Source: a virus (lineage: Duplodnaviria; Caudoviricetes). Taken from it: a stretch of DNA of 30,051 nucleotides. The notes below the pieces were generated by a model. That model did not search any database. It saw only the letters and a program-made list of their open reading frames with translations, and was not told where the DNA came from. A program made the position numbers and the translations under genes. The DNA is taken from the IMG/VR virus record IMGVR_UViG_3300011337_000119, positions 1-30,051 of that record, one strand, 5' to 3'. Every line of letters begins with the position of its first letter. Position 1 is the first letter of the stretch. Shown here piece by piece: positions 3,476 through 30,004 of the stretch.

Positions 3476-3629
3476 ATAAATTTATTAAATCTGCTAAATA
3501 ATCAAATGCTTCCTCTTGGGTTTCGCCAAATACATAGTGAGTACATCCGTCAATGACAAATGAAAAACAAGGATAACCAGCGATTACCTCTTGTTTGCAC
3601 GTTGCAAATATGTTACTTGTATCTATCAA
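3453..3629 (-). CDS. 58-aa hypothetical protein (TTG start, not in ORF track)
   Basis: MIDTSNIFATCKQEVIAGYPCFSFVIDGCTHYVFGETQEEAFDYLADLINLYGKSKQQ fills the gap after NinG. Confidence 0.5.
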   Translation of the reverse strand: MIDTSNIFATCKQEVIAGYPCFSFVIDGCTHYVFGETQEEAFDYLADLINLYGKSKQQ

Positions 3630-4005
3630 TTAAATCGTTTAATTCTGTTCTTGTCCATTTCTTTATTGTTCTTTGGTTTTCCTCTAACCAATCTACCATA
3701 TCTTGACCTATTTTGTTAATTAGGTTTTTACGATATCCAATTAAATGAAACTCATCAAATCCATTGCAACGCTTACATTCCCCTGAACAATTATACTCGT
3801 TAAATCTTAAAAAGCTACTATTTTTAACAGGTACAAAATGACCGCAATCCATTTGATCTGTTGTTAATGTCCTTCCACAACTAATGCAAGTAAAGTACCC
3901 ATCTTGGCTATCCCTTTCCCTAATTGCTTTGTTAAATACCTTTTGTGCTTTAGCAGTTAACTTTGGTATTGTAATTAATTTATTCATATTTCCATAAATA
4001 TCCAT
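3613..4005 (-). CDS. ninG: NinG/Rap-like junction endonuclease (true start may be MNKLITI)
   Basis: AQKVFNKAIRERD...CISCG...DCGHF...LRFNEYNCSGECKRCN pattern. Confidence 0.85.
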   Translation of the reverse strand: MDIYGNMNKLITIPKLTAKAQKVFNKAIRERDSQDGYFTCISCGRTLTTDQMDCGHFVPVKNSSFLRFNEYNCSGECKRCNGFDEFHLIGYRKNLINKIGQDMVDWLEENQRTIKKWTRTELNDLIDRYK

Positions 4006-4504
4006 AAGAAGTTAACTGTTTGCCTTTTGCACATCTAATTATTGCAGAACGTTCAAAACCTTTTTTATGTGCATCAGTTATACATTCCCATTTTTTTACA
4101 AAATTACCATTTAAATCATATTGAAAAATCAATTTATTTAATTTTTTAGTTGTTTTCTTTAAACCTAATTTAAAAGCGTGTCTTTGATTATCTCCCGCAC
4201 TTAACCACTCTAAATTTTCTACCCTATTATCAGTTTTTATGCCGTTTATATGATTTACTTGTGCCAAGTTGTTAATATTTGGTAAAAATGTATTTGCTAT
4301 AATTCTATGTAAAAGAACTTGTTTACGACAAACACTTACATAACAATATCCATTCATAATTGATGGATTTATTATTTTAGATTGATATGTTCTTTTTGTA
4401 GACTTACCTGTTACCCAAATTCTATTTTTTCTTATTACATTTCCTAAATTAGATACTTTTAAGTATTCTTCATAACCTTTGGCATCTTCCCAAATTTCTT
4501 TCAT
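3980..4504 (-). CDS. NUMOD4-HNH-NUMOD1 homing endonuclease
   Basis: EIWEDAKGYEEYLKVSNLG (NUMOD4), HRIIA...VNHINGIKTDNRVENLEW (HNH), QYDLNGNFVKKW...GYLWKY. Confidence 0.9.
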   Translation of the reverse strand: MKEIWEDAKGYEEYLKVSNLGNVIRKNRIWVTGKSTKRTYQSKIINPSIMNGYCYVSVCRKQVLLHRIIANTFLPNINNLAQVNHINGIKTDNRVENLEWLSAGDNQRHAFKLGLKKTTKKLNKLIFQYDLNGNFVKKWECITDAHKKGFERSAIIRCAKGKQLTSYGYLWKYE

Positions 4505-4604
4505 AAAATAAAAAAGGCTATCAAAATCAGCATAGTGAGATTACGCATCATTATCAAGCCTAATAAGTACAAATATTGGATATCTCACATCCACTACAAA
4601 TTTA
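4505..4604 (-). promoter_or_regulatory. Promoter TAAATTTG plus structured 5' leader (kissing-loop candidate) of the HNH gene
   Basis: TGGAT-GTGAGAT-ATCCA hairpin; GCGTA-ATCTCAC-TATGC hairpin inside an AGGCT/AGCCT stem followed by a T-tract. Confidence 0.7.
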
Positions 4605-4607
4605 CAA

Positions 4608-4805
4608 TTACTTTTTCAATCTGACAACACAAAGTCTTTCTTTATACTTGTATCGTTTTTTGTTTATTGGGTTCATATAAGTCATTATGGTTTTGTAATC
4701 AGTTCCTAAAAACCTTATTGCCTTTGCTATTGATCTAAACTCTACTTCCTCTTTTGTATCTAAATAAATCAGTCTAACCTCTATGTTGTTGTCTATTCCT
4801 GTCAT
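4608..4805 (-). CDS. Small NUMOD1-like DNA-binding protein
   Basis: EFRSIAKAIRFLG motif. Confidence 0.6.
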   Translation of the reverse strand: MTGIDNNIEVRLIYLDTKEEVEFRSIAKAIRFLGTDYKTIMTYMNPINKKRYKYKERLCVVRLKK

Positions 4806-4921
4806 CTCAATAATCGTTTTAATTCAAAGTACAAGTGTGCAGTTAAATAAATGCAACAAGCTAATGGAACGCTAAATAGCATAAACTTTACTAATTCGTA
4901 AATAAATGTTAGTGTTTTCAT
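4802..4921 (-). CDS. 39-aa membrane peptide (not in ORF track)
   Basis: MKTLTFIYELVKFMLFSVPLACCIYLTAHLYFELKRLLR; ATGA overlap with the next gene. Confidence 0.55.
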   Translation of the reverse strand: MKTLTFIYELVKFMLFSVPLACCIYLTAHLYFELKRLLR

Positions 4922-4927
4922 AAGTTT

Positions 4928-4991
4928 AAAAAACCACCCCAAGTTCCCCAAATCACTATCTTGTTATTAAATATATAATTTCTTGAGGTGG
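4928..4991 (-). terminator. Long terminator/attenuator-like hairpin
   Basis: CCACCTCAAG/CTTGGGGTGG stem followed by T6, immediately after the stop at 4992. Confidence 0.6.
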
Positions 4992-5717
4992 CTATAATTT
5001 GTTTTGTAAAAATAGGTACAAAGTATATCTTTTGCACTCATTTTTGATAAATAATTCATTATTTAATTTCTCCAAGTCTTTAGGTGTTTTAGCCTGTACC
5101 TTATAATGTGCTATAATTTTTTTCTTTATCTGGTCTGCTTTCTCTTGACTTATGTTTTCTTTGTTCAGTTCCTTTCGTTTCCATAGTATGTCAAAAGCCA
5201 TCGTATTAAGCAACTCCCATCCTCTTTTAGCCGACTTCTCCCAATTTTCGTACAATGCCTCAATAACTTCATCATCTTGTATTTTAGGTATTTCTACTGG
5301 TTGTGGTTCTATATAGGTCTTTTGTCTTACTTGTAAAGCTATCGGTTTATAAGCTGCCATCACATCGCCAAAGAATTTAGGGGTAAACATAATCGCTTTG
5401 TCAACTGATAATTTGCCCATTGCGTAAAGTTCAAAAGCTACACCAAGTTCCTTTAGTTTATAATTTCCGTAATTCTTAATAACAAATTCGCAAAGAAACT
5501 GGAACAACTCAATAGTAGGAGTTTGACATCCGCTTAAAGCAATACAGGTTTTAAGGTGTTCTTTAACCTCAATAGGTGAGCATCTTCCGATACTCATCGT
5601 TTCTAATGCAACTGCAACCATTAATTCATCGTTATCTAATTTAGTGTAAATTTCTAAGGGCATCCCATTCTCTTTCACTAAAATTTGGTTTGTGATTGTT
5701 GCTAATTCCTGTTGCAT
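4992..5717 (-). CDS. Hypothetical protein, possibly replication accessory
   Basis: 241-aa ORF overlapping the replication initiator; function inferred from position only. Confidence 0.6.
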   Translation of the reverse strand: MQQELATITNQILVKENGMPLEIYTKLDNDELMVAVALETMSIGRCSPIEVKEHLKTCIALSGCQTPTIELFQFLCEFVIKNYGNYKLKELGVAFELYAMGKLSVDKAIMFTPKFFGDVMAAYKPIALQVRQKTYIEPQPVEIPKIQDDEVIEALYENWEKSAKRGWELLNTMAFDILWKRKELNKENISQEKADQIKKKIIAHYKVQAKTPKDLEKLNNELFIKNECKRYTLYLFLQNKL

Positions 5718-6378
5718 TTGGTTTGTAGTTTATGTGAACAAATTTGCCTTCCTTTAAATCTCTTGCCATCCAATTTTTTGCGGTGGCTATCCAATCAAGT
5801 TTCTTTTCGCCTTTAGAATCAGACCAATTTTTAATTACTTCGTGGTAGTATGCAAAATTAGCTTCTTCATATTGAGTTCCAATAAAAGCTGCTTTAAATA
5901 TTTCTATATCTAAAAATTGCGTTTCACTAAATAACGTTTGCCTACTAACCTTTACTTTAGTTTCTTTTACTTTTCTTTCCTTTCCTTTTCTTTCCTTTGC
6001 ATTACCATCCCCAATGGCATCCCCAATAGCCCCCCCATTTTTCCATCTATTAGCAGCACCTAATTTACCTTTTTCGCTTAGATTTTGCCTTAAAGCTAAA
6101 TGATTTTGCAACCTTTCCGAGTAAAACTCGCCAGATTCAATAGAAAATAAATTAAAATTATGTACTACCCCATTAACCTTTACATCGGTAGTTTGCATCT
6201 GCATAGCAAGTACAGGTATTAAATCTAATGGCAATTTACCTCCTGCATTAGCCAATTGCTCAATTAAAAACCAATAAATGCCATAACCTTCCATACCAAG
6301 TTGATGCCGTAAAAATAGAATCTTGGTATCATTAGCCGAGTTGTAATCGTGGCTAAAATAGTAACTATTACTTTTCAT
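5641..6378 (-). CDS. Replication initiator-like protein (DUF4373/Lin1244-like N-terminus)
   Basis: YFSHDYNSANDTKI...GMEGYGIYWFLIE; low-complexity linker; C-terminal DWIATAKNW. Confidence 0.75.
   Translation of the reverse strand: MKSNSYYFSHDYNSANDTKILFLRHQLGMEGYGIYWFLIEQLANAGGKLPLDLIPVLAMQMQTTDVKVNGVVHNFNLFSIESGEFYSERLQNHLALRQNLSEKGKLGAANRWKNGGAIGDAIGDGNAKERKGKERKVKETKVKVSRQTLFSETQFLDIEIFKAAFIGTQYEEANFAYYHEVIKNWSDSKGEKKLDWIATAKNWMARDLKEGKFVHINYKPNATGISNNHKPNFSEREWDALRNLH
6006..6037. repeat. Iteron-like 12-bp-period repeats inside the initiator gene (candidate origin)
   Basis: CATCCCCAAT at 6006 and 6018, degenerate third copy; next to a strand-asymmetric tract at ~5950-6000. Confidence 0.45.
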
Positions 6379-6479
6379 AAAAATAAAATAGCCCGCAGAT
6401 TTGCTGGTAGTACGAGTACCAACGCCTCCTTGGGCAAAAAGTTTTGTATTAGAATCTCGTACATTCTATTGCAAATATA
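6379..6479 (-). promoter_or_regulatory. Promoter TATATTTG plus structured 5' leader (kissing-loop candidate) of the initiator gene
   Basis: TAGAAT-GTACGAG-ATTCTA hairpin; GTTGGTA-CTCGTAC-TACCAGC hairpin inside a GCCC/GGGC stem followed by a T-rich tract. Confidence 0.75.
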
Positions 6480-6480
6480 A

Positions 6481-6675
6481 TCAATTAACCGAATATTGTG
6501 CCACTTGTTTCTTGTTTTTTAGCTTAATAATGGTAGTTTTTATGTTCATACCATCGTTTCTTAGGTCAGCTATTCGTGCTGCTAATCTAAAGCATCCGAA
6601 CTTGTTTAAGGCATCAATAGGGGTTAATTTGCGACCTTTATTTAGGTAGTTTGCAATTTGTTGGTTTTGGCTCAT
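6481..6675 (-). CDS. Small winged-HTH protein
   Basis: LTPIDALNKFGCFRLAARIADLR motif. Confidence 0.8.
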   Translation of the reverse strand: MSQNQQIANYLNKGRKLTPIDALNKFGCFRLAARIADLRNDGMNIKTTIIKLKNKKQVAQYSVN

Positions 6676-6681
6676 AGTTGG

Positions 6682-6819
6682 TTATTTTATGTCAGATAAA
6701 AAATAAGATGTACTTGGTGATGTAGTTCCAATCCCTACATTCCCTAAAGTATTATATGTGGATGCAGTCCCAAAGCCACTACTTGTTAAAGTAAATCCAC
6801 TTTGACTTGGGACATTTAA
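6682..6819 (-). CDS. Putative 45-aa -1 frameshift extension of 6816..7016
   Basis: A AAT TTT heptamer at 6819..6825, stem at 6767..6813, -1 frame open to TAA at 6682. Confidence 0.6.
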   Translation of the reverse strand, partial: LNVPSQSGFTLTSSGFGTASTYNTLGNVGIGTTSPSTSYFLSDIK

Positions 6820-7016
6820 AAATTTCGCACAATAATTTGAACGTTATATGCTGATTCTGCATACTCATCTGGTATTTCTCTTGTAATTTTAAATACTAAA
6901 TCTTTCTCGCTTTTAGCAAGAGCAATCTTGGGTTCAATAATTACTTTTGAATCTGTGTAATCACCATCTTTGTCGTATTGGTGAAAAATAACTGCATACT
7001 GGAATAATTGTTTCAT
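6816..7016 (-). CDS. 66-aa hypothetical protein ending IIVRNF
   Basis: ORF with A-rich initiation region. Confidence 0.75.
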   Translation of the reverse strand: MKQLFQYAVIFHQYDKDGDYTDSKVIIEPKIALAKSEKDLVFKITREIPDEYAESAYNVQIIVRNF

Positions 7017-7079
7017 AATTTTTGTTTTAATTGTTTTTAAATTTGCGCTTAACGTTATCGCCCAACGAGGGGTTGTTTA

Positions 7080-7487
7080 CTAAAATGGTAATGAAGAATC
7101 ATCTGTTGGATGCGATTCGTGTTCTTGTTGATTTACTGCAAATTCTTTTTTAGATTCTGCTTTTTCACCTAATGGATTACCTAATAATTGAATATTTGAT
7201 ACTCTTACAGTTAACGTACTTCCAGCAGTATTGTCTTTTGTTAAATACGCTTTAGTATCTGGAGTTCCTTCAACATAAACTTGTGTTCCTTTTTTTAAAT
7301 ATGTTGCAATTGCAGTTTTGTCAGTCCAATTTGAACAATCAACCCAAGTTGTTTTTTCGTGTTGTTCATTGTTTTTGTCCTTGTATTTTTCAGTATGTGC
7401 AATACTAAAGTTAATTACCTTCTTACCATTTACATCGTTTACAACGGCATCTTTGCCTAAGTGTCCGATAACTTGTGTTTTAATCAT
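7080..7487 (-). CDS. ssb: Single-stranded DNA-binding protein
   Basis: IGHLGKDA...YLKKGTQVYVEG OB fold; acidic C-terminus DDSSLPF. Confidence 0.95.
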   Translation of the reverse strand: MIKTQVIGHLGKDAVVNDVNGKKVINFSIAHTEKYKDKNNEQHEKTTWVDCSNWTDKTAIATYLKKGTQVYVEGTPDTKAYLTKDNTAGSTLTVRVSNIQLLGNPLGEKAESKKEFAVNQQEHESHPTDDSSLPF

Positions 7488-7492
7488 TGTTT

Positions 7493-7663
7493 TTAGTTTT
7501 CGTGTTTATTAATTTGTTCTTGTTCTATTTGTGTTTCCGTTTGTGCATCTTGTTCTAATTCTTCTTCGTCTTCTTCTTCCCAATCGCAATGTTCTAAACA
7601 ATCAGGACAAATGTCAATTTCATCAAAGTTTGTGTGCGCACCGCAGCAAGTTGAATATGGCAT
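7493..7663 (-). CDS. 56-aa Cys-rich, highly acidic protein (not in ORF track)
   Basis: MPYSTCCGAHTNFDEIDICPDCLEHCDWEEEDEEELEQDAQTETQIEQEQINKHEN fills the gap between flanking genes. Confidence 0.75.
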   Translation of the reverse strand: MPYSTCCGAHTNFDEIDICPDCLEHCDWEEEDEEELEQDAQTETQIEQEQINKHEN

Positions 7664-7665
7664 AA

Positions 7666-7908
7666 TTAATCGTTTGAGTAGTTTTCAAATTGTTCGCACC
7701 AAGTATCCATTGGTACAAAAGGAATTTGTTTAAAATTATGTTTAGGTTGCTCTAATAAATGTGGCATATTATCACGCTTAAAAGCCTTTAATAATTCCTT
7801 TGCACTATTGACTTTCTCATAGGCTTCTTTGGTGTTTTTTTGCTCATAAATACCTTGCCAAAACCAAACATTAGTTCTTAAACTTTCTAATTTGTGATAG
7901 ATGTTCAT
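7666..7908 (-). CDS. Hypothetical protein
   Basis: 80-aa ORF with ATGA overlap on bet. Confidence 0.7.
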   Translation of the reverse strand: MNIYHKLESLRTNVWFWQGIYEQKNTKEAYEKVNSAKELLKAFKRDNMPHLLEQPKHNFKQIPFVPMDTWCEQFENYSND

Positions 7909-8621
7909 AGTGTTTCTTTTTTCTTGGTAAATAATTTAGTTACATCTTTAGTTGCAAGTTCCTGATTCAAGGTATAAAGTTCAGCTAATTCGTTTGTGCT
8001 TATGCATAGATCAATAGCTAACTCTAAATCTTCAAGATTATCGTGCGTTTTAATATAGGCTGGTTTGTCATCGCTTTGTGCCATTTCATCGCCTGTGTAA
8101 AGTCCGCTTAAATCTTGTGGGTAAGCCTTTCTTAAAGCTAATGCCTCTGCAACTTTAGAAAGCATTGTATGTGGCATCTTCGCCCATAAACCCATTGGTT
8201 TACCATCGTTTGTTCTTTGGCAGTATTCATCCCAATAAGCTATTCCAACTGCTGCTTCATACCTTGAATCTCCGTGAAATCTAAATACTGATACTTTACA
8301 AGAAATTAATTTTCCATCTTGTTCTACAAAGATTGGTTCGCTTTGTCCACCATAGTTTCCGCTACGTTCTGCGATTACTCGGAAGCCGTCAATACTTGTT
8401 TGGATAGTCATTTTTTTAGTCCATCCGTTTTGTGTTTTAACGTTCCTGTGGATGCAATAAATCTGCCTTGATAACGCATCGAGTCCTGTGCGTTGTGCTT
8501 GGTAAAGAAATAGCTTTAGTTCATCAACTGTTGCTTCTGGAGCAATCTGCGATTTTACTAACTCTACTTGGTCTTTCGTGTACGAAAGTTGTGGCTTTTT
8601 AGCCAGTTGTTGTTCGTTCAT
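7905..8621 (-). CDS. bet: Bet/RecT-family single-strand annealing recombinase
   Basis: ELKLFLYQAQRTGLDALSRQIY, SIDGFRVIAER, WAKMPHTMLSKVAEALALRKAYP. Confidence 0.92.
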   Translation of the reverse strand: MNEQQLAKKPQLSYTKDQVELVKSQIAPEATVDELKLFLYQAQRTGLDALSRQIYCIHRNVKTQNGWTKKMTIQTSIDGFRVIAERSGNYGGQSEPIFVEQDGKLISCKVSVFRFHGDSRYEAAVGIAYWDEYCQRTNDGKPMGLWAKMPHTMLSKVAEALALRKAYPQDLSGLYTGDEMAQSDDKPAYIKTHDNLEDLELAIDLCISTNELAELYTLNQELATKDVTKLFTKKKETL

Positions 8622-8640
8622 ATTGGTTGGTTTTAGAGTT

Positions 8641-8672
8641 TAAAATTAAGTACTTTGGTGTTAATAACCAAA
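8641..8672 (-). promoter_or_regulatory. Promoter for bet (TTTG-N20-TAATTTTA)
   Basis: -33 TTTG at 8669..8672 and a -7 variant at 8641..8648. Confidence 0.5.
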
Positions 8673-9110
8673 TTAAACAAGCACATTTAAGTTGAAAACG
8701 TCCTTTTTTATGGTATCATCGAACTTATTTGACAATTGTCCTTTGATTTTTGAGATTGAGTGTAAAACTGTGGTTCTATCCCTATTAAAGATTTGTGCTA
8801 TTTCCTCGCCATTTAAGTTGGTCTTTTCTTTAGTCAAATACATTGTCATTTGCCTTGCCAAAGTAACTTCTTCGCCTCTATATTTTGACATTAATTGTCC
8901 GTACTTAATCTGGTAGTAATTGCACACTTTTTCGGCTATTTCTATTGCGTACTCCTTTTGTTGTTCTTTGTCCATTCTTATTGTTTTTATGTTTAAATGT
9001 TTATCTAATAGGTCTTTTAACCTGTTTATTTCTTTTTTAAGTTCTTTGTTCTTATCTCGCAAAACCTCTATTTCAAGTTCTGCCATATAGGTTTTATGTA
9101 CTTCTCTCAT
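8673..9110 (-). CDS. Coiled-coil plus DnaA C-terminal-like HTH protein
   Basis: VCNYYQI...LMSKYR...ARQMTMYL...IAQIFNRDRTTVLHSISKI resembles DnaA domain IV. Confidence 0.85.
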   Translation of the reverse strand: MREVHKTYMAELEIEVLRDKNKELKKEINRLKDLLDKHLNIKTIRMDKEQQKEYAIEIAEKVCNYYQIKYGQLMSKYRGEEVTLARQMTMYLTKEKTNLNGEEIAQIFNRDRTTVLHSISKIKGQLSNKFDDTIKKDVFNLNVLV

Positions 9111-9406
9111 TAGAAATGTAAAAGGTTAATTGGGAGCATAAAGTCCTCCGTTAATGTATAAAGGTCAAGGATTAGAAAATGGTAGCTTTTAAGGATTCGC
9201 TTTTGCACATCGTTCATTCGTGCAATCTTAATCAATAAATCTTCCTCGCTAATCATTGTTCTTGTGTCATCCAATCCTCGCCTCCATTCCGCAAGATCAG
9301 CCTCAAATAGATTTTGCCTTCCTTGTGCTTCCTTTAGTAACTGGAGTAGCATTGTTGCTCTTTGGTGCAACTTTAGTTGTTTCGCTTGATAGATTAGTTT
9401 GCTCAT
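9110..9406 (-). CDS. Hypothetical helical protein
   Basis: 98-aa ORF coupled to the next gene. Confidence 0.65.
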   Translation of the reverse strand: MSKLIYQAKQLKLHQRATMLLQLLKEAQGRQNLFEADLAEWRRGLDDTRTMISEEDLLIKIARMNDVQKRILKSYHFLILDLYTLTEDFMLPINLLHF

Positions 9407-9521
9407 ATTGTTTTAGGATTTTGTAAACCAACTTACTAAGGGTTATGCCTTTGGAGTCGGCTTCGGTTTGTAGGTTAGTCTTGATTTGGTTGGTTACTAA
9501 TGTCGTTATCAGGGTTTTCAT
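9303..9521 (-). CDS. Ribbon-helix-helix-like regulator
   Basis: N-terminal strand then LQTEADSKGITLSKLVYKIL; C-terminal tail overlaps the next ORF. Confidence 0.55.
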   Translation of the reverse strand: MKTLITTLVTNQIKTNLQTEADSKGITLSKLVYKILKQYEQTNLSSETTKVAPKSNNATPVTKGSTRKAKSI

Positions 9522-9642
9522 AAATTGATTTAATACCTCTTGCTAAGTTTCTACAGGCTTCAACTGTTTCTCTTACATAGCCATTTGGCATATTAATTAA
9601 TTGGTTTTCTAATGTCTTAATGTAAATGTTAATTGGTGTCAT
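9475..9642 (-). CDS. Hypothetical protein (start revised to MTPINIY)
   Basis: ATG 1 nt after the stop of 9644..9772. Confidence 0.6.
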   Translation of the reverse strand: MTPINIYIKTLENQLINMPNGYVRETVEACRNLARGIKSIYENPDNDISNQPNQD

Positions 9643-9643
9643 A

Positions 9644-9772
9644 CTAAATGTTTTGAAGGATTGCGGTAATAATAAATGCGATGCATACAATGATAAATGC
9701 ATACATAGGTTTGATTGAATCGGCTTGGTAGCGTTCGTTTGCTTTTTGTTGTGGTGTTTTTAACTTGTTCAT
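9644..9772 (-). CDS. 42-aa protein with C-terminal TM helix (not in ORF track)
   Basis: MNKLKTPQQKANERYQADSIKPMYAFIIVCIAFIITAILQNI. Confidence 0.65.
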   Translation of the reverse strand: MNKLKTPQQKANERYQADSIKPMYAFIIVCIAFIITAILQNI

Positions 9773-9924
9773 ATTGGTTTTATTTGATATCCTAAAGAAA
9801 TATATTTTTCTAACTTAAATACTAATAATGATTTGTCAAATTCATTAAATTGATTAACTGGAAGTAAAATAGTAATCCAGTCAGTAGTTGTACCTTCTTT
9901 GTAAATTTTAAATGCTTTTTTCAT
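9769..9924 (-). CDS. 51-aa hypothetical protein, first gene of the early operon (not in ORF track)
   Basis: MKKAFKIYKEGTTTDWITILLPVNQFNEFDKSLLVFKLEKYISLGYQIKPI; ATGA overlap; promoter just upstream. Confidence 0.65.
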   Translation of the reverse strand: MKKAFKIYKEGTTTDWITILLPVNQFNEFDKSLLVFKLEKYISLGYQIKPI

Positions 9925-9944
9925 ATTGCTTTTGGTTTAGAACT

Positions 9945-9952
9945 CAAAGATA
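9945..9952 (-). promoter_or_regulatory. Early promoter -7 element TATCTTTG
   Basis: Consensus TAnnTTTG 20 nt upstream of ATG 9924; TTTG at 9975..9978. Confidence 0.65.
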
Positions 9953-10004
9953 GGGCAAAACCTTATAACTTTATCAAACAAGGCAATTATTTTCTAAAAT
10001 TGTG

Positions 10005-10289
10005 ATGAACGGCAAATAATATGGTATGAATGGTATAATTTGACTTATATGGGACTAATATGTATCAAAAAGTGCGTTTTTTGACACATTATTGTACGAA
10101 TAAGTGACACAATTTTACGTTTATATGCATGAAATATTAGAAAAATTCATGCAGTCTTATATGACTAGTTAGATAAGACTATCTGACTAGTTATTATAAT
10201 TTAGGTACAACAAGAGTTTATAATTTTGGTAAAAGTAGTAGTTTTACTACCTTTTATGAGCGATAAATGAACTTTTTATGAGCGATAAA
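10005..10289. repeat. Array of abutting, mutually unrelated direct- and inverted-repeat sites
   Basis: For example TTTTATGAGCGATAAA x2, TAT[A/C]TGACTAGTTA x2, TTATAATTT[A/T]GGTA x2, TGCATGAA-N12-TTCATGCA. Confidence 0.75.
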
Positions 10290-10350
10290 AAACCCCTAAC
10301 CACATTGACGTTATGATTAGGGGTAGAACCTTGTTCAGTTGTTTTTCAGA
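10287..10350 (-). ncRNA. Candidate small RNA 1
   Basis: TTTG(10382..10385)-N20-TAATTTTA(10354..10361) promoter; 12-bp hairpin plus T6 terminator; no ORF. Confidence 0.5.
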
Positions 10351-10386
10351 ATGTAAAATTAATAACTTTAAATAATACTAACAAAT

Positions 10387-10442
10387 AAAAAACCCCCACT
10401 ATGGAAATAGCGAGGGTTAAACCTAAGTTAAACCAATATGAA
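10387..10442 (-). ncRNA. Candidate small RNA 2, antisense to early-gene start codons
   Basis: TATCTTTG at 10446..10453; 5' seed TTCATATTGGTTT; 10-bp hairpin plus T6. Confidence 0.65.
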
Positions 10443-10456
10443 AGCCAAAGATATAT

Positions 10457-10522
10457 AAAAAAAGCAACTTTTTATGGTTGCTTTGTGTGTAACGTTCTGG
10501 TAGCTATCTCCAAAACTCTACG
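10457..10522 (-). ncRNA. Candidate small RNA 3
   Basis: TATATTTG at 10526..10533; GCAAC/GTTGC hairpin plus T7; no ORF. Confidence 0.55.
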
Positions 10523-10536
10523 ATGCAAATATATAT

Positions 10537-10564
10537 AAAAAACCCCACCTTTTTAGGGGTGAGG
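10537..10564 (-). terminator. Intrinsic terminator ending the late/lysis operon
   Basis: CCTCACC/GGTGGGG stem plus T6, 16 nt after the stop at 10581. Confidence 0.8.
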
Positions 10565-10580
10565 AACTATGAACGAACAA

Positions 10581-10850
10581 CTATTTAGAACCATCTTGTA
10601 ATGGTGTATCATTAGAATTATCAACCCTTCTGTAACCTTCTTTCCAGAGAATCTTACATAAAGTTACGCTTTTATCAATAATTGCATTTTCATCGTCCAT
10701 TGGGTTAAGTATATGTAAACACTCGTGCAATAGAATTTCAAGGTGCTTCTTGCCCTTTAAACGAGAATCTATTATGACAATACCATCACTCTCGGCAATG
10801 CCGTGTGCTTGTTCTCTGCCAAGTTTACGATATTCTATTTTAATCTTCAT
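10581..10850 (-). CDS. Small HExxH metallopeptidase-like protein
   Basis: IIIDSRL...EILLHECLH. Confidence 0.7.
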   Translation of the reverse strand: MKIKIEYRKLGREQAHGIAESDGIVIIDSRLKGKKHLEILLHECLHILNPMDDENAIIDKSVTLCKILWKEGYRRVDNSNDTPLQDGSK

Positions 10851-11031
10851 CTTTTAATAAAGCTAAATCTGGTCTATCAACCTCTTTAAATATAAGTTTC
10901 TCGCCACCTCTGATCTTACCTAATGTGGTTTTAATCTCTTGTTCTAAGTTGTGCAATTCAATTAGTTTAGCAACCAACCATTGTTCTTGTTGTAGTGAGT
11001 TCAATTTTGCAAAGTTTTTAGGGTATCTCAT
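10840..11031 (-). CDS. Hypothetical protein (start revised to MRYPKNF)
   Basis: ATG 1 nt after the stop of 11033..12073. Confidence 0.65.
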   Translation of the reverse strand: MRYPKNFAKLNSLQQEQWLVAKLIELHNLEQEIKTTLGKIRGGEKLIFKEVDRPDLALLKDED

Positions 11032-28261: not shown

Positions 28262-28632
28262 TTATTAGGATTGAAAGCCCAATTCTTTAAGGATATATCC
28301 CTTTTAGATGGACAAGTTTTATTGACTGGTTCGCCTTGCTCCATATTTTTCATTCTACTTACAAAACTTATCGTTCTATTAGCAGCCTTTACCTCGTTTG
28401 CACCCCAATCCGCTTTCTTGGTCTTTAAGAGCCTCAAATTTCGGTTTATTGGACTTCTGTCTAATGATGCTAACTTTGAACACTCCGACTTGCTCCAAGC
28501 CTCTAATTCGCTAAAAGACATATTTACAGTATCGTGGTACTTTGCGTAAACCTCGTCTACTATTTCAGTTAGATCAGCTTTCAGTTCAACTTTAAGGTCA
28601 AACAACAAATCAATAAGGTCTTGACTATTCAT
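28258..28632 (-). CDS. DUF3140-like protein
   Basis: VNMSFSELEAW...LKTKKADW...SLKNWAFNP resembles DUF3140 (from memory, not searched). Confidence 0.55.
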   Translation of the reverse strand: MNSQDLIDLLFDLKVELKADLTEIVDEVYAKYHDTVNMSFSELEAWSKSECSKLASLDRSPINRNLRLLKTKKADWGANEVKAANRTISFVSRMKNMEQGEPVNKTCPSKRDISLKNWAFNPNK

Positions 28633-30004
28633 TTGGTAATGTTAAAGGTTGGAAATTATCAGGTGGTTGTAAACTTGAAGGGATGTAAAGTTTTTCCATT
28701 TCGTTTTCGTCTATGTAAGGTGGAATCTCTAATCCCATTATATCCATCTTTTGCTTAGGTGCAATCCACCAAGCCTTATCTAACCATTCTACTTGCTCTG
28801 CTTTGTTAGCTTCTAATTCGCCATAAACACTTGCATCGAAGTCGACATAAATATCCGTTCCTCTATAACCCCAGTCAGAATGTAGCTTTCTATTTAAGTT
28901 ATCTCTAATACCTGTAAGCAAAGGAATAGCACAACGTAATGTCAATGCTTTCTCGCCTTCTCTTTGGTTGTTGTAAGTCTTATTGTCGCTATCGTTTAAA
29001 AGTTGCGCTGGTACTCCGTAAATATTACAAAGTGCTTTCATATCCCACTTCTCACTTTCAATGATGTCTAATTCAACAGGACTTAATCCGATTTGCTTCC
29101 AGTCTACTTTATAACCACTAACCGCAATTGAATTAAAGTTAGCAGAACCACCTTTCTCACTCACCGCCTTTTTAAGTGCTTGTGCTTGTTGTGTTCCACT
29201 AATAGGATCAAAGCGTTCATCATTCATAAAAAGAACTCCAGCTGGACCACCATTCTGGAAAGATGCAACCGCAGCAGTCTTCGCTTCGTTGGAACGAGTC
29301 AAGTTTTTCGCAGCAGCCATCAATGGAGATTGACCATATAGTTGATTCCCAGTTGTATTCCATTGTAAGTTTATGTATTTATCTTGTAGTACCTCTTGTT
29401 TAGTAAAGTTCCAAAGTGGACCATAGTTCAATTGGTAACCGCTAATAGTTGGAGGAAAGTTTTGAATGTCCGCTAAAACGTACATATATTGAGAAGGTAG
29501 AACGTACATCTCATAAGGTTTGCCGTTATTGTTACCACCTTCAATCATCTTTGCGTAAACGAAAGAGTTACCTGTGATTAACTTAAAAGTACACCAAGCC
29601 TCTACGAAATCGCCAAAGGTATCTTCTTCATTAGGATATTTCAACAACTCGTTTAATCTTGCATCACCTGTGTATAATTCAAATGCCTTCTTGTGTAGCT
29701 TCTCAACGTCCTTCCAGTTCTCAATCTTATCTGGTTGGCTCATTAACGCTTTATATTTCTTTGCTGATGTTTCATCAACTACTTTATAAACGTGGAATGG
29801 AGCAAGTTTTGCTTTATCCGCAATTAATTTAACGATTGAATAAACAATATCATTCGCTGCATAACCATCATTAACAAAGCTAATGTTATCGCCACCTTGC
29901 CAAGTTATTATCCCTTGTTGTATCGCAACTTGTCCGTTAAAAGGAATTTGTGGTAGTACAGTAGATAGTTTTTGTCTTTTACCAAAAAAGTCAAGTAATC
30001 CCAT
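28625..30004 (-). CDS. Portal protein, HK97 family
   Basis: LLKYPN, LITGNSF, YGQSPL, NGGPAGVL, IYGVP, TYNN. Confidence 0.95.
   Translation of the reverse strand: MGLLDFFGKRQKLSTVLPQIPFNGQVAIQQGIITWQGGDNISFVNDGYAANDIVYSIVKLIADKAKLAPFHVYKVVDETSAKKYKALMSQPDKIENWKDVEKLHKKAFELYTGDARLNELLKYPNEEDTFGDFVEAWCTFKLITGNSFVYAKMIEGGNNNGKPYEMYVLPSQYMYVLADIQNFPPTISGYQLNYGPLWNFTKQEVLQDKYINLQWNTTGNQLYGQSPLMAAAKNLTRSNEAKTAAVASFQNGGPAGVLFMNDERFDPISGTQQAQALKKAVSEKGGSANFNSIAVSGYKVDWKQIGLSPVELDIIESEKWDMKALCNIYGVPAQLLNDSDNKTYNNQREGEKALTLRCAIPLLTGIRDNLNRKLHSDWGYRGTDIYVDFDASVYGELEANKAEQVEWLDKAWWIAPKQKMDIMGLEIPPYIDENEMEKLYIPSSLQPPDNFQPLTLPNE

Follow-up and report, generated by a model that had tools for sequence, protein, structure and literature searches.

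A covarying loop-loop RNA leader, most likely an attenuator, in front of the replication genes of freshwater Bacteroidota phages

The replication initiator gene of the phage studied here is preceded by a leader (6379-6479, minus strand) which comparison with its relatives confirms as a real structured RNA element, with covarying pairing between two hairpin loops. It is most likely a regulatory attenuator, and it probably limits the amount of replication protein. The window, as the whole analysed stretch of 30,051 nucleotides is called here, belongs to a Bacteroidota phage with a genome of ~29 kb and a terminal overlap at the contig ends; its minus strand carries nearly all genes. A portal-like gene is present twice (1-1192 and 28625-30004), and since the two copies show small differences, the terminal overlap may join two strains. 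No integrase or repressor was identified among 20 proteins of the early region and the packaging genes scanned against Pfam, and no tRNA genes were found.

Anatomy and conservation of the leader

The gene behind the leader (5641-6378, minus strand) encodes a 245-aa replication initiator of the Lin1244_N (DUF4373) type, matching PF14297 (E 4e-9) and phrog_2562, replication initiation protein (E 9e-19). It holds A-rich tandem repeats at about 5949-6006; origins of the lambda type lie at such a place within the initiator gene. The gene ahead of the leader (6481-6675, minus strand) encodes a 64-aa winged-helix protein (HTH_39, PF14090, E 4.5e-15).

Every element that the earlier note had drawn between 6379 and 6479 was found in place on the minus strand. 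A -7 promoter box of the Bacteroidota type (TAnnTTTG, 6472-6479), overlapping the end of the HTH_39 gene region, is followed by the hairpin P1 (6450-6468), with six base pairs and the 7-nt loop L1, GUACGAG (6462-6456). A single-stranded linker of 14 nt (6436-6449), A/U-rich and conserved in its 3' half, leads to a long irregular hairpin (6391-6435). This hairpin consists of a 4-bp outer stem (6435-6432 with 6394-6391), two purine-rich internal loops and the 7-bp stem P3 (6423-6403), closed by the loop L3, CUCGUAC (6416-6410), the exact reverse complement of L1, as had been claimed. A U-rich tract (6379-6390) separates the outer stem from the initiator AUG at 6378 and is a candidate both for a terminator tail and for the only single-stranded ribosome landing site.

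When the whole window was searched for two stems of at least 5 bp with exactly complementary loops of at least 7 nt, only two sites were detected: this leader, picked on both strands, and a second one in front of an HNH gene. In 60 dinucleotide shuffles the mean was 0.05 matches, with one match in 3 of them. Folding energy on its own is modest (z of -2.25 and -0.77 for the two leaders).

Among 80 viral loci whose initiator is related, 77 have the leader, and the remaining three begin inside the gene. Pattern scans in which neither loop was specified, and which were hence blind to loop sequence, returned 118 matches, two of which were dropped for short flanks; the loops are complementary in 115 of the 116 loci. 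Among distinct leaders the figure is 47/48, against a permutation mean of 26.8 and a maximum of 35 in 10,000, and among metagenome loci 13/13. A looser pattern was unspecific, with 120 matches for one real leader.

For the model alignment, 92 distinct cores were fitted to the stems, not to the loop-loop pairing (the kiss); the rows are related and come from one phage group, and are thus not independent. In this alignment 94.9% of the cells are paired, 23 of 26 pairs have changed on both sides, and the covariation score is 0.667, against 0.193 for shuffled and at most 0.172 for slid controls. When the loops were taken from each sequence's own hairpins, they were exact complements in 91/92 cores, with 14 loop pairs (13 codes of 7 nt and one 6-nt pair). 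The earlier proposal of a cis-placed RNA family with covarying loops, in front of initiators and endonucleases, is borne out by these counts, and the loss of complementarity in homologous leaders that would have spoken against it did not occur. The single break, in locus L276, coincides with a damaged P1 and different upstream DNA.

All six pairs of P1 change on both sides among the 92 leaders, as do all five of the outer stem, which is 98.6% paired. Read on the sense strand, the stems accept G-U and almost no mismatch; G-U occupies 39 of 455 P3 cells. The kiss, on the contrary, is Watson-Crick in 631/631 cells of the 91 intact leaders, with no wobble intermediate. Because P3 takes G-U and the kiss never does, the pattern favours an element acting as sense-strand RNA rather than as DNA. 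Watson-Crick pairing does not extend beyond the loops in 83/92 leaders and reaches at most one base on each side in the other 9; the interaction is therefore a kiss, not a zipper. At the level of comparative sequence analysis, the sense RNA is shown to fold as P1 plus the long hairpin, with L1 paired to L3. A kink-turn in the long hairpin, an idea raised by eye, was rejected, as the adjacent pair (columns 52-90) is Watson-Crick and covarying in 92/92.

The spacing of the element is constrained as well. The loop-to-loop distance is 45-47 nt in 87/92 leaders, which suits a geometry or timing in cis, and the linker measures 14-15 nt in 71/92. Unpaired bases are near-invariant at two linker columns (A in 91/92) and in the internal loops (a G and an A, each 88/92). 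Within the 7-nt codes, U2 and A6 are constant in 13/13, and positions 3-5 vary freely. Between the end of the outer stem and the AUG lie 9-12 nt in 111/111 distinct leaders. Seven of the first eight nucleotides past the stem are U in 75/92 (six or seven in 87/92); the window's copy has an interrupted tract with 6/8 U. Positions -12 to -1 hold a mean of 9.2 U over the 111 distinct leaders; the corresponding mean over 38 other genes in the window is 3.4, with a maximum of 7.

A box of the TAnnTTTG type, a consensus taken from the available text of PMC7366714, lies upstream of every one of 172 distinct leader regions; 161 of the boxes are exact and the other 11 carry C at position 7. A -33 TTG is present in only 40/126. 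The box is mostly 7-10 nt before loop 1, and P1 would therefore be the 5' end of the RNA.

Gene context, mobile cassettes and turnover of the loop code

One leader copy was counted in each of fifty longer records chosen for the leader, with the exception of one record carrying it twice, at its two ends. Of 328 profile matches, 321 could be placed, all in sense orientation directly before an AUG, and 7 lie too near a locus end. The first genes of these 321 placements, in which some contigs count more than once, are Lin1244_N initiators (159), DUF1376-like genes (73), short HNH genes (22) and NUMOD4-HNH genes (15), followed by other initiator families, nucleases and methyltransferases. Judged from these placements, the leader heads the replication module whichever initiator family comes next, and is normally single-copy. 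As the first genes are non-homologous, feedback by the first gene's protein is argued against. In the 22 placements with a short HNH gene, this gene stands between leader and initiator (L051, 2618-2944) and would therefore fall under the leader's control.

The contigs of close initiator relatives, binned with Chitinophagaceae and Sediminibacterium, carry the leader. No leader match was found among 50,697 records of cultured phages, which gave 20 distant initiator matches, and the initiator homologues of gut Bacteroidales have no leader. In host chromosomes it was found in 1/151 genomes of the family and 1/150 of the phylum, both being the starting MAG itself. One further locus, L512, combines the loop code of L051 with a different scaffold, before a NUMOD4-like gene; no promoter box is evident within the 50 nt shown, and a weak match to the small RNA FopS lies outside its leader.

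The second leader of the window (4505-4604, minus strand) has its own promoter box (4604-4597) and the loops GUGAGAU (4588-4582) and AUCUCAC (4541-4535). Its AUG, at 4504, starts a 174-aa NUMOD4-HNH endonuclease (3980-4504, minus strand; Pfam NUMOD4 and HNH_3). The earlier note had described this copy as identical in architecture and unrelated in sequence. The architecture is indeed the same; the sequence is that of a diverged homologue, since it is matched, with E 0.0014, by a profile of 89 leaders from which HNH-type rows were left out. To judge from the alignments, leader and gene together are a mobile cassette inserted directly behind a promoter box: similarity to close relatives breaks at 4597, the box runs straight to ninG in 13/18 loci among those listed, and the cassette recurs at 82% identity in phage L078, whose initiator is 51% identical. 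The ninG start lies 4 nt past the promoter box in L002 (6800-6805) and 12 other loci, which suggests a nearly leaderless ninG message. The cassette's code differs from that of the initiator leader in four cases, namely the window, L078, L236/L456 and L311/L414, and one HNH type is common to three of them.

Mapped on an initiator tree of 58 rows, the loop code has changed 13 times. With a minimum of 7 and a shuffled mean of 24, the code appears clustered, yet repeatedly exchanged between close relatives. Identical arm sequences occur with different intact codes in 5/51 arm types, one of these being the broken leader. The three central loop pairs change 12, 10 and 6 or 9, 6 and 3 times, versus a stem mean of 4.1-4.3 with a range of 0-15 (80/92 rows), an apparent excess that is modest.

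Two further small RNAs may be encoded nearby. At 10453-10385 (minus strand), a promoter box, an unstructured stretch of ~27 nt and a strong terminator are conserved in relatives. The stretch shows exact complementarity to three start regions, those of a 42-aa early gene (13 nt, 9768-9780), recT (12 nt, 8617-8628) and a 51-aa gene (10 nt, 9919-9928), and is a candidate for an sRNA through which the phage would repress early genes of its own. Its architecture recalls the small RNAs FopS and GibS, which bind near start codons according to the accessible part of PMC11697453; no FopS match was obtained for it. An extra promoter box with two hairpins and a U-tract (10533-10455, minus strand), absent from most relatives listed, is a possible second small RNA.

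A proposed switch and its rivals

In the reading that we favour, to which we give nearly an even chance, the leader would be a promoter-proximal attenuator gating the phage replication module: outer stem and U-tract would form the OFF state, and the kiss in cis would delay closure of the stem. Transcription would start a few bases ahead of P1. L1 would be ready when L3 emerges 46 nt later, and the kiss would precede synthesis of the last outer-stem strand. By stretching the 14-nt linker, it would delay outer-stem closure until the polymerase has passed the U-tract (ON). With L1 unavailable, the outer stem would close beside the U-tract and transcription would end (OFF); with 9-12 nt between them, the closed stem might crowd the start codon as well.

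What would make L1 unavailable is a matter of guesswork. The leading guess, itself rather doubtful, is that terminated leaders of ~85 nt accumulate and capture nascent loops in trans, a negative feedback per loop code. Such capture would explain strict complementarity combined with code turnover, whereas fixed spacing would be no less expected if the element acted purely in cis. A swappable-code, self-titrating switch would follow the same lines, and we consider it somewhat improbable: a single short RNA would serve as sensor and regulator alike, the kiss in cis would mean read-through, and terminated copies would shut off replication genes of the same code, in their own or a co-infecting phage. 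The 14 loop pairs would then be specificity groups, and the mobile HNH cassettes would use their own code for independence. Hints of such a switch are the shared arms with different codes, the number of changes in the central loop pairs and the lack of wobble in the kiss.

A toy geometry leaves the linker 62-98% extended with the stem closed and 29-50% with the stem open, with the strain at 1.9-11.2 kcal/mol; stem closure is worth -9.4 kcal/mol and the loop duplex -7.8. According to this model, kiss and closed stem can coexist in most settings, and it is conceivable that the kiss instead locks the switch in its OFF state. Because the strain is mostly below the closure energy, the exclusion would be kinetic at best, with its sign possibly reversed. 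Furthermore, the candidate terminator stem is covarying, interrupted and only 4-5 bp long, and a simple consensus terminator scan gave 8 sites in 3500-11000, neither leader among them.

A translational switch, in which the closed outer stem would keep the 30S subunit from its landing site, the kiss would either open that site or lock it and the U-tract would be an unstructured landing pad, is unlikely. The invariable 9-12 nt between stem and AUG would suit it; structure at -20 to +20 lowers initiation in F. johnsoniae, as stated in the available part of PMC6847099, and translation of IncI repZ uses a loop-based pseudoknot (second-hand, from the accessible text of PMC8383071). The start region, however, is U-rich, unlike the A-rich starts of the other genes of this phage and, from the same part of PMC6847099, of F. 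johnsoniae. In addition, an ATG-started frame is open through the leader in only 14/111, the window's leader being of this type.

The coexistence permitted by the toy energies leaves room for a compact fold, in which kiss and closed stem together would be the OFF state or a protein-binding site, and a phage or host protein on the linker or on the G.A-rich internal loops would flip it. The near-invariant unpaired bases would fit such contacts, but strictly Watson-Crick loops with many codes would not be needed, and we regard this fold as quite improbable. Still less probable is a terminated leader that is mainly a small RNA with a job of its own, such as excluding kin phages, and whose position ahead of the initiator is secondary. 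The leader does have its own promoter box and a terminator-like end, and the 13 code changes against a minimum of 7 would agree with such a role; against it stand the sense orientation directly before the AUG in all placed matches and the loop words themselves, for which the rest of the window offers 2 stray matches and no meaningful site.

An antisense countertranscript of the kind that controls pT181 and IncI plasmids, or an operator or origin at the DNA level, is hardly more credible: each hairpin is a DNA palindrome, and the linker on the other strand resembles a promoter box, matching in 28/206, but 178/206 have no antisense box in the leader, only 6/206 carry such a box within the gene's first 200 nt, and the tolerance for G-U on the sense strand with almost no mismatch points to RNA. 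A metabolite or ion riboswitch of the guanidine-IV type is the least probable, since the identical topology and the constant U2 and A6 are set against freely varying central loop pairs, a context of replication and nucleases instead of transport or metabolism, and the absence of any Rfam match.

Known systems and significance

The earlier note had recognised no named family, and Rfam agrees: no match was obtained over either leader (E up to 5) or over the leaders of 10 related loci (E up to 10). No prior description was found in the literature searched, most subscription papers lying outside its coverage. Over ten thousand viral RNA candidates are catalogued in PMC10690425, going by the portion available; three of its six text supplements hold no match to three motifs of the leader, and a fourth none of six contig names. 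An unnamed listing there is possible. The leader is real and uncatalogued.

A close likeness is the guanidine-IV riboswitch (GGAM-1 or mepA motif), for which steric antitermination by kissing was proposed, as the accessible parts of PMC7736828 and PMC11611296 have it. In both RNAs, loop-loop pairing connects a hairpin at the 5' end with one that resembles a terminator. The riboswitch has conserved pocket nucleotides in its loops; here only U2 and A6 are kept, with 14 interchangeable codes, in a phage replication context and without an Rfam match. By sequence, the leader falls outside that family.

The model for capture in trans is the CI RNA (seqA-seqC) of the phage-plasmid P4, a leader-derived RNA that ends transcription before the replication genes (second-hand, in the available text of PMC4825925). 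CI, as described there, arises by processing of the transcript and has two flanking sites as its pairing partners, whereas the phage leader has two hairpin loops and no third site. The Rfam search gave no match of the C4/IsrK type, and the P4 CI and P1 C4 models were unmatched.

In the IncI-alpha repZ pseudoknot with its Inc antisense RNA, and in the pT181 attenuator, leader structure also sets the dose of an initiator, and a loop interaction in cis competes with one in trans (second-hand, from the accessible portion of PMC8383071). The earlier analogy to plasmid rep control therefore stands as regards the job. The parts differ: the conserved countertranscript promoter and the conserved leader ORF of those plasmids are absent here, given the antisense and open-frame counts above, and a change of code requires matched changes in two loops. 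In IncI/IncB rep leaders, a leader peptide is coupled to rep.

The zipper-type attenuator cATT of pLS20 also places a short stem-loop, complementary to the terminator, upstream of it, with read-through as the default. In the part of PMC13401043 available, its stems are invaded and its leader measures 456 nt, against about 90 nt and a pairing that stops at the loop ends in 83/92 here.

A compact, strongly covarying RNA element thus heads the replication module in a common group of freshwater Bacteroidota phages. To our knowledge, almost nothing is known of gene control in such phages. If it is true that the kiss gates termination without a ligand, the leader would offer a simple natural case in which to test the steric antitermination idea put forward for guanidine-IV. 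Should terminated leaders act in trans, these phages would possess a means of copy-number control or exclusion that needs no protein and comes with natural orthogonal codes, and its elements would be useful parts for Bacteroidota engineering.
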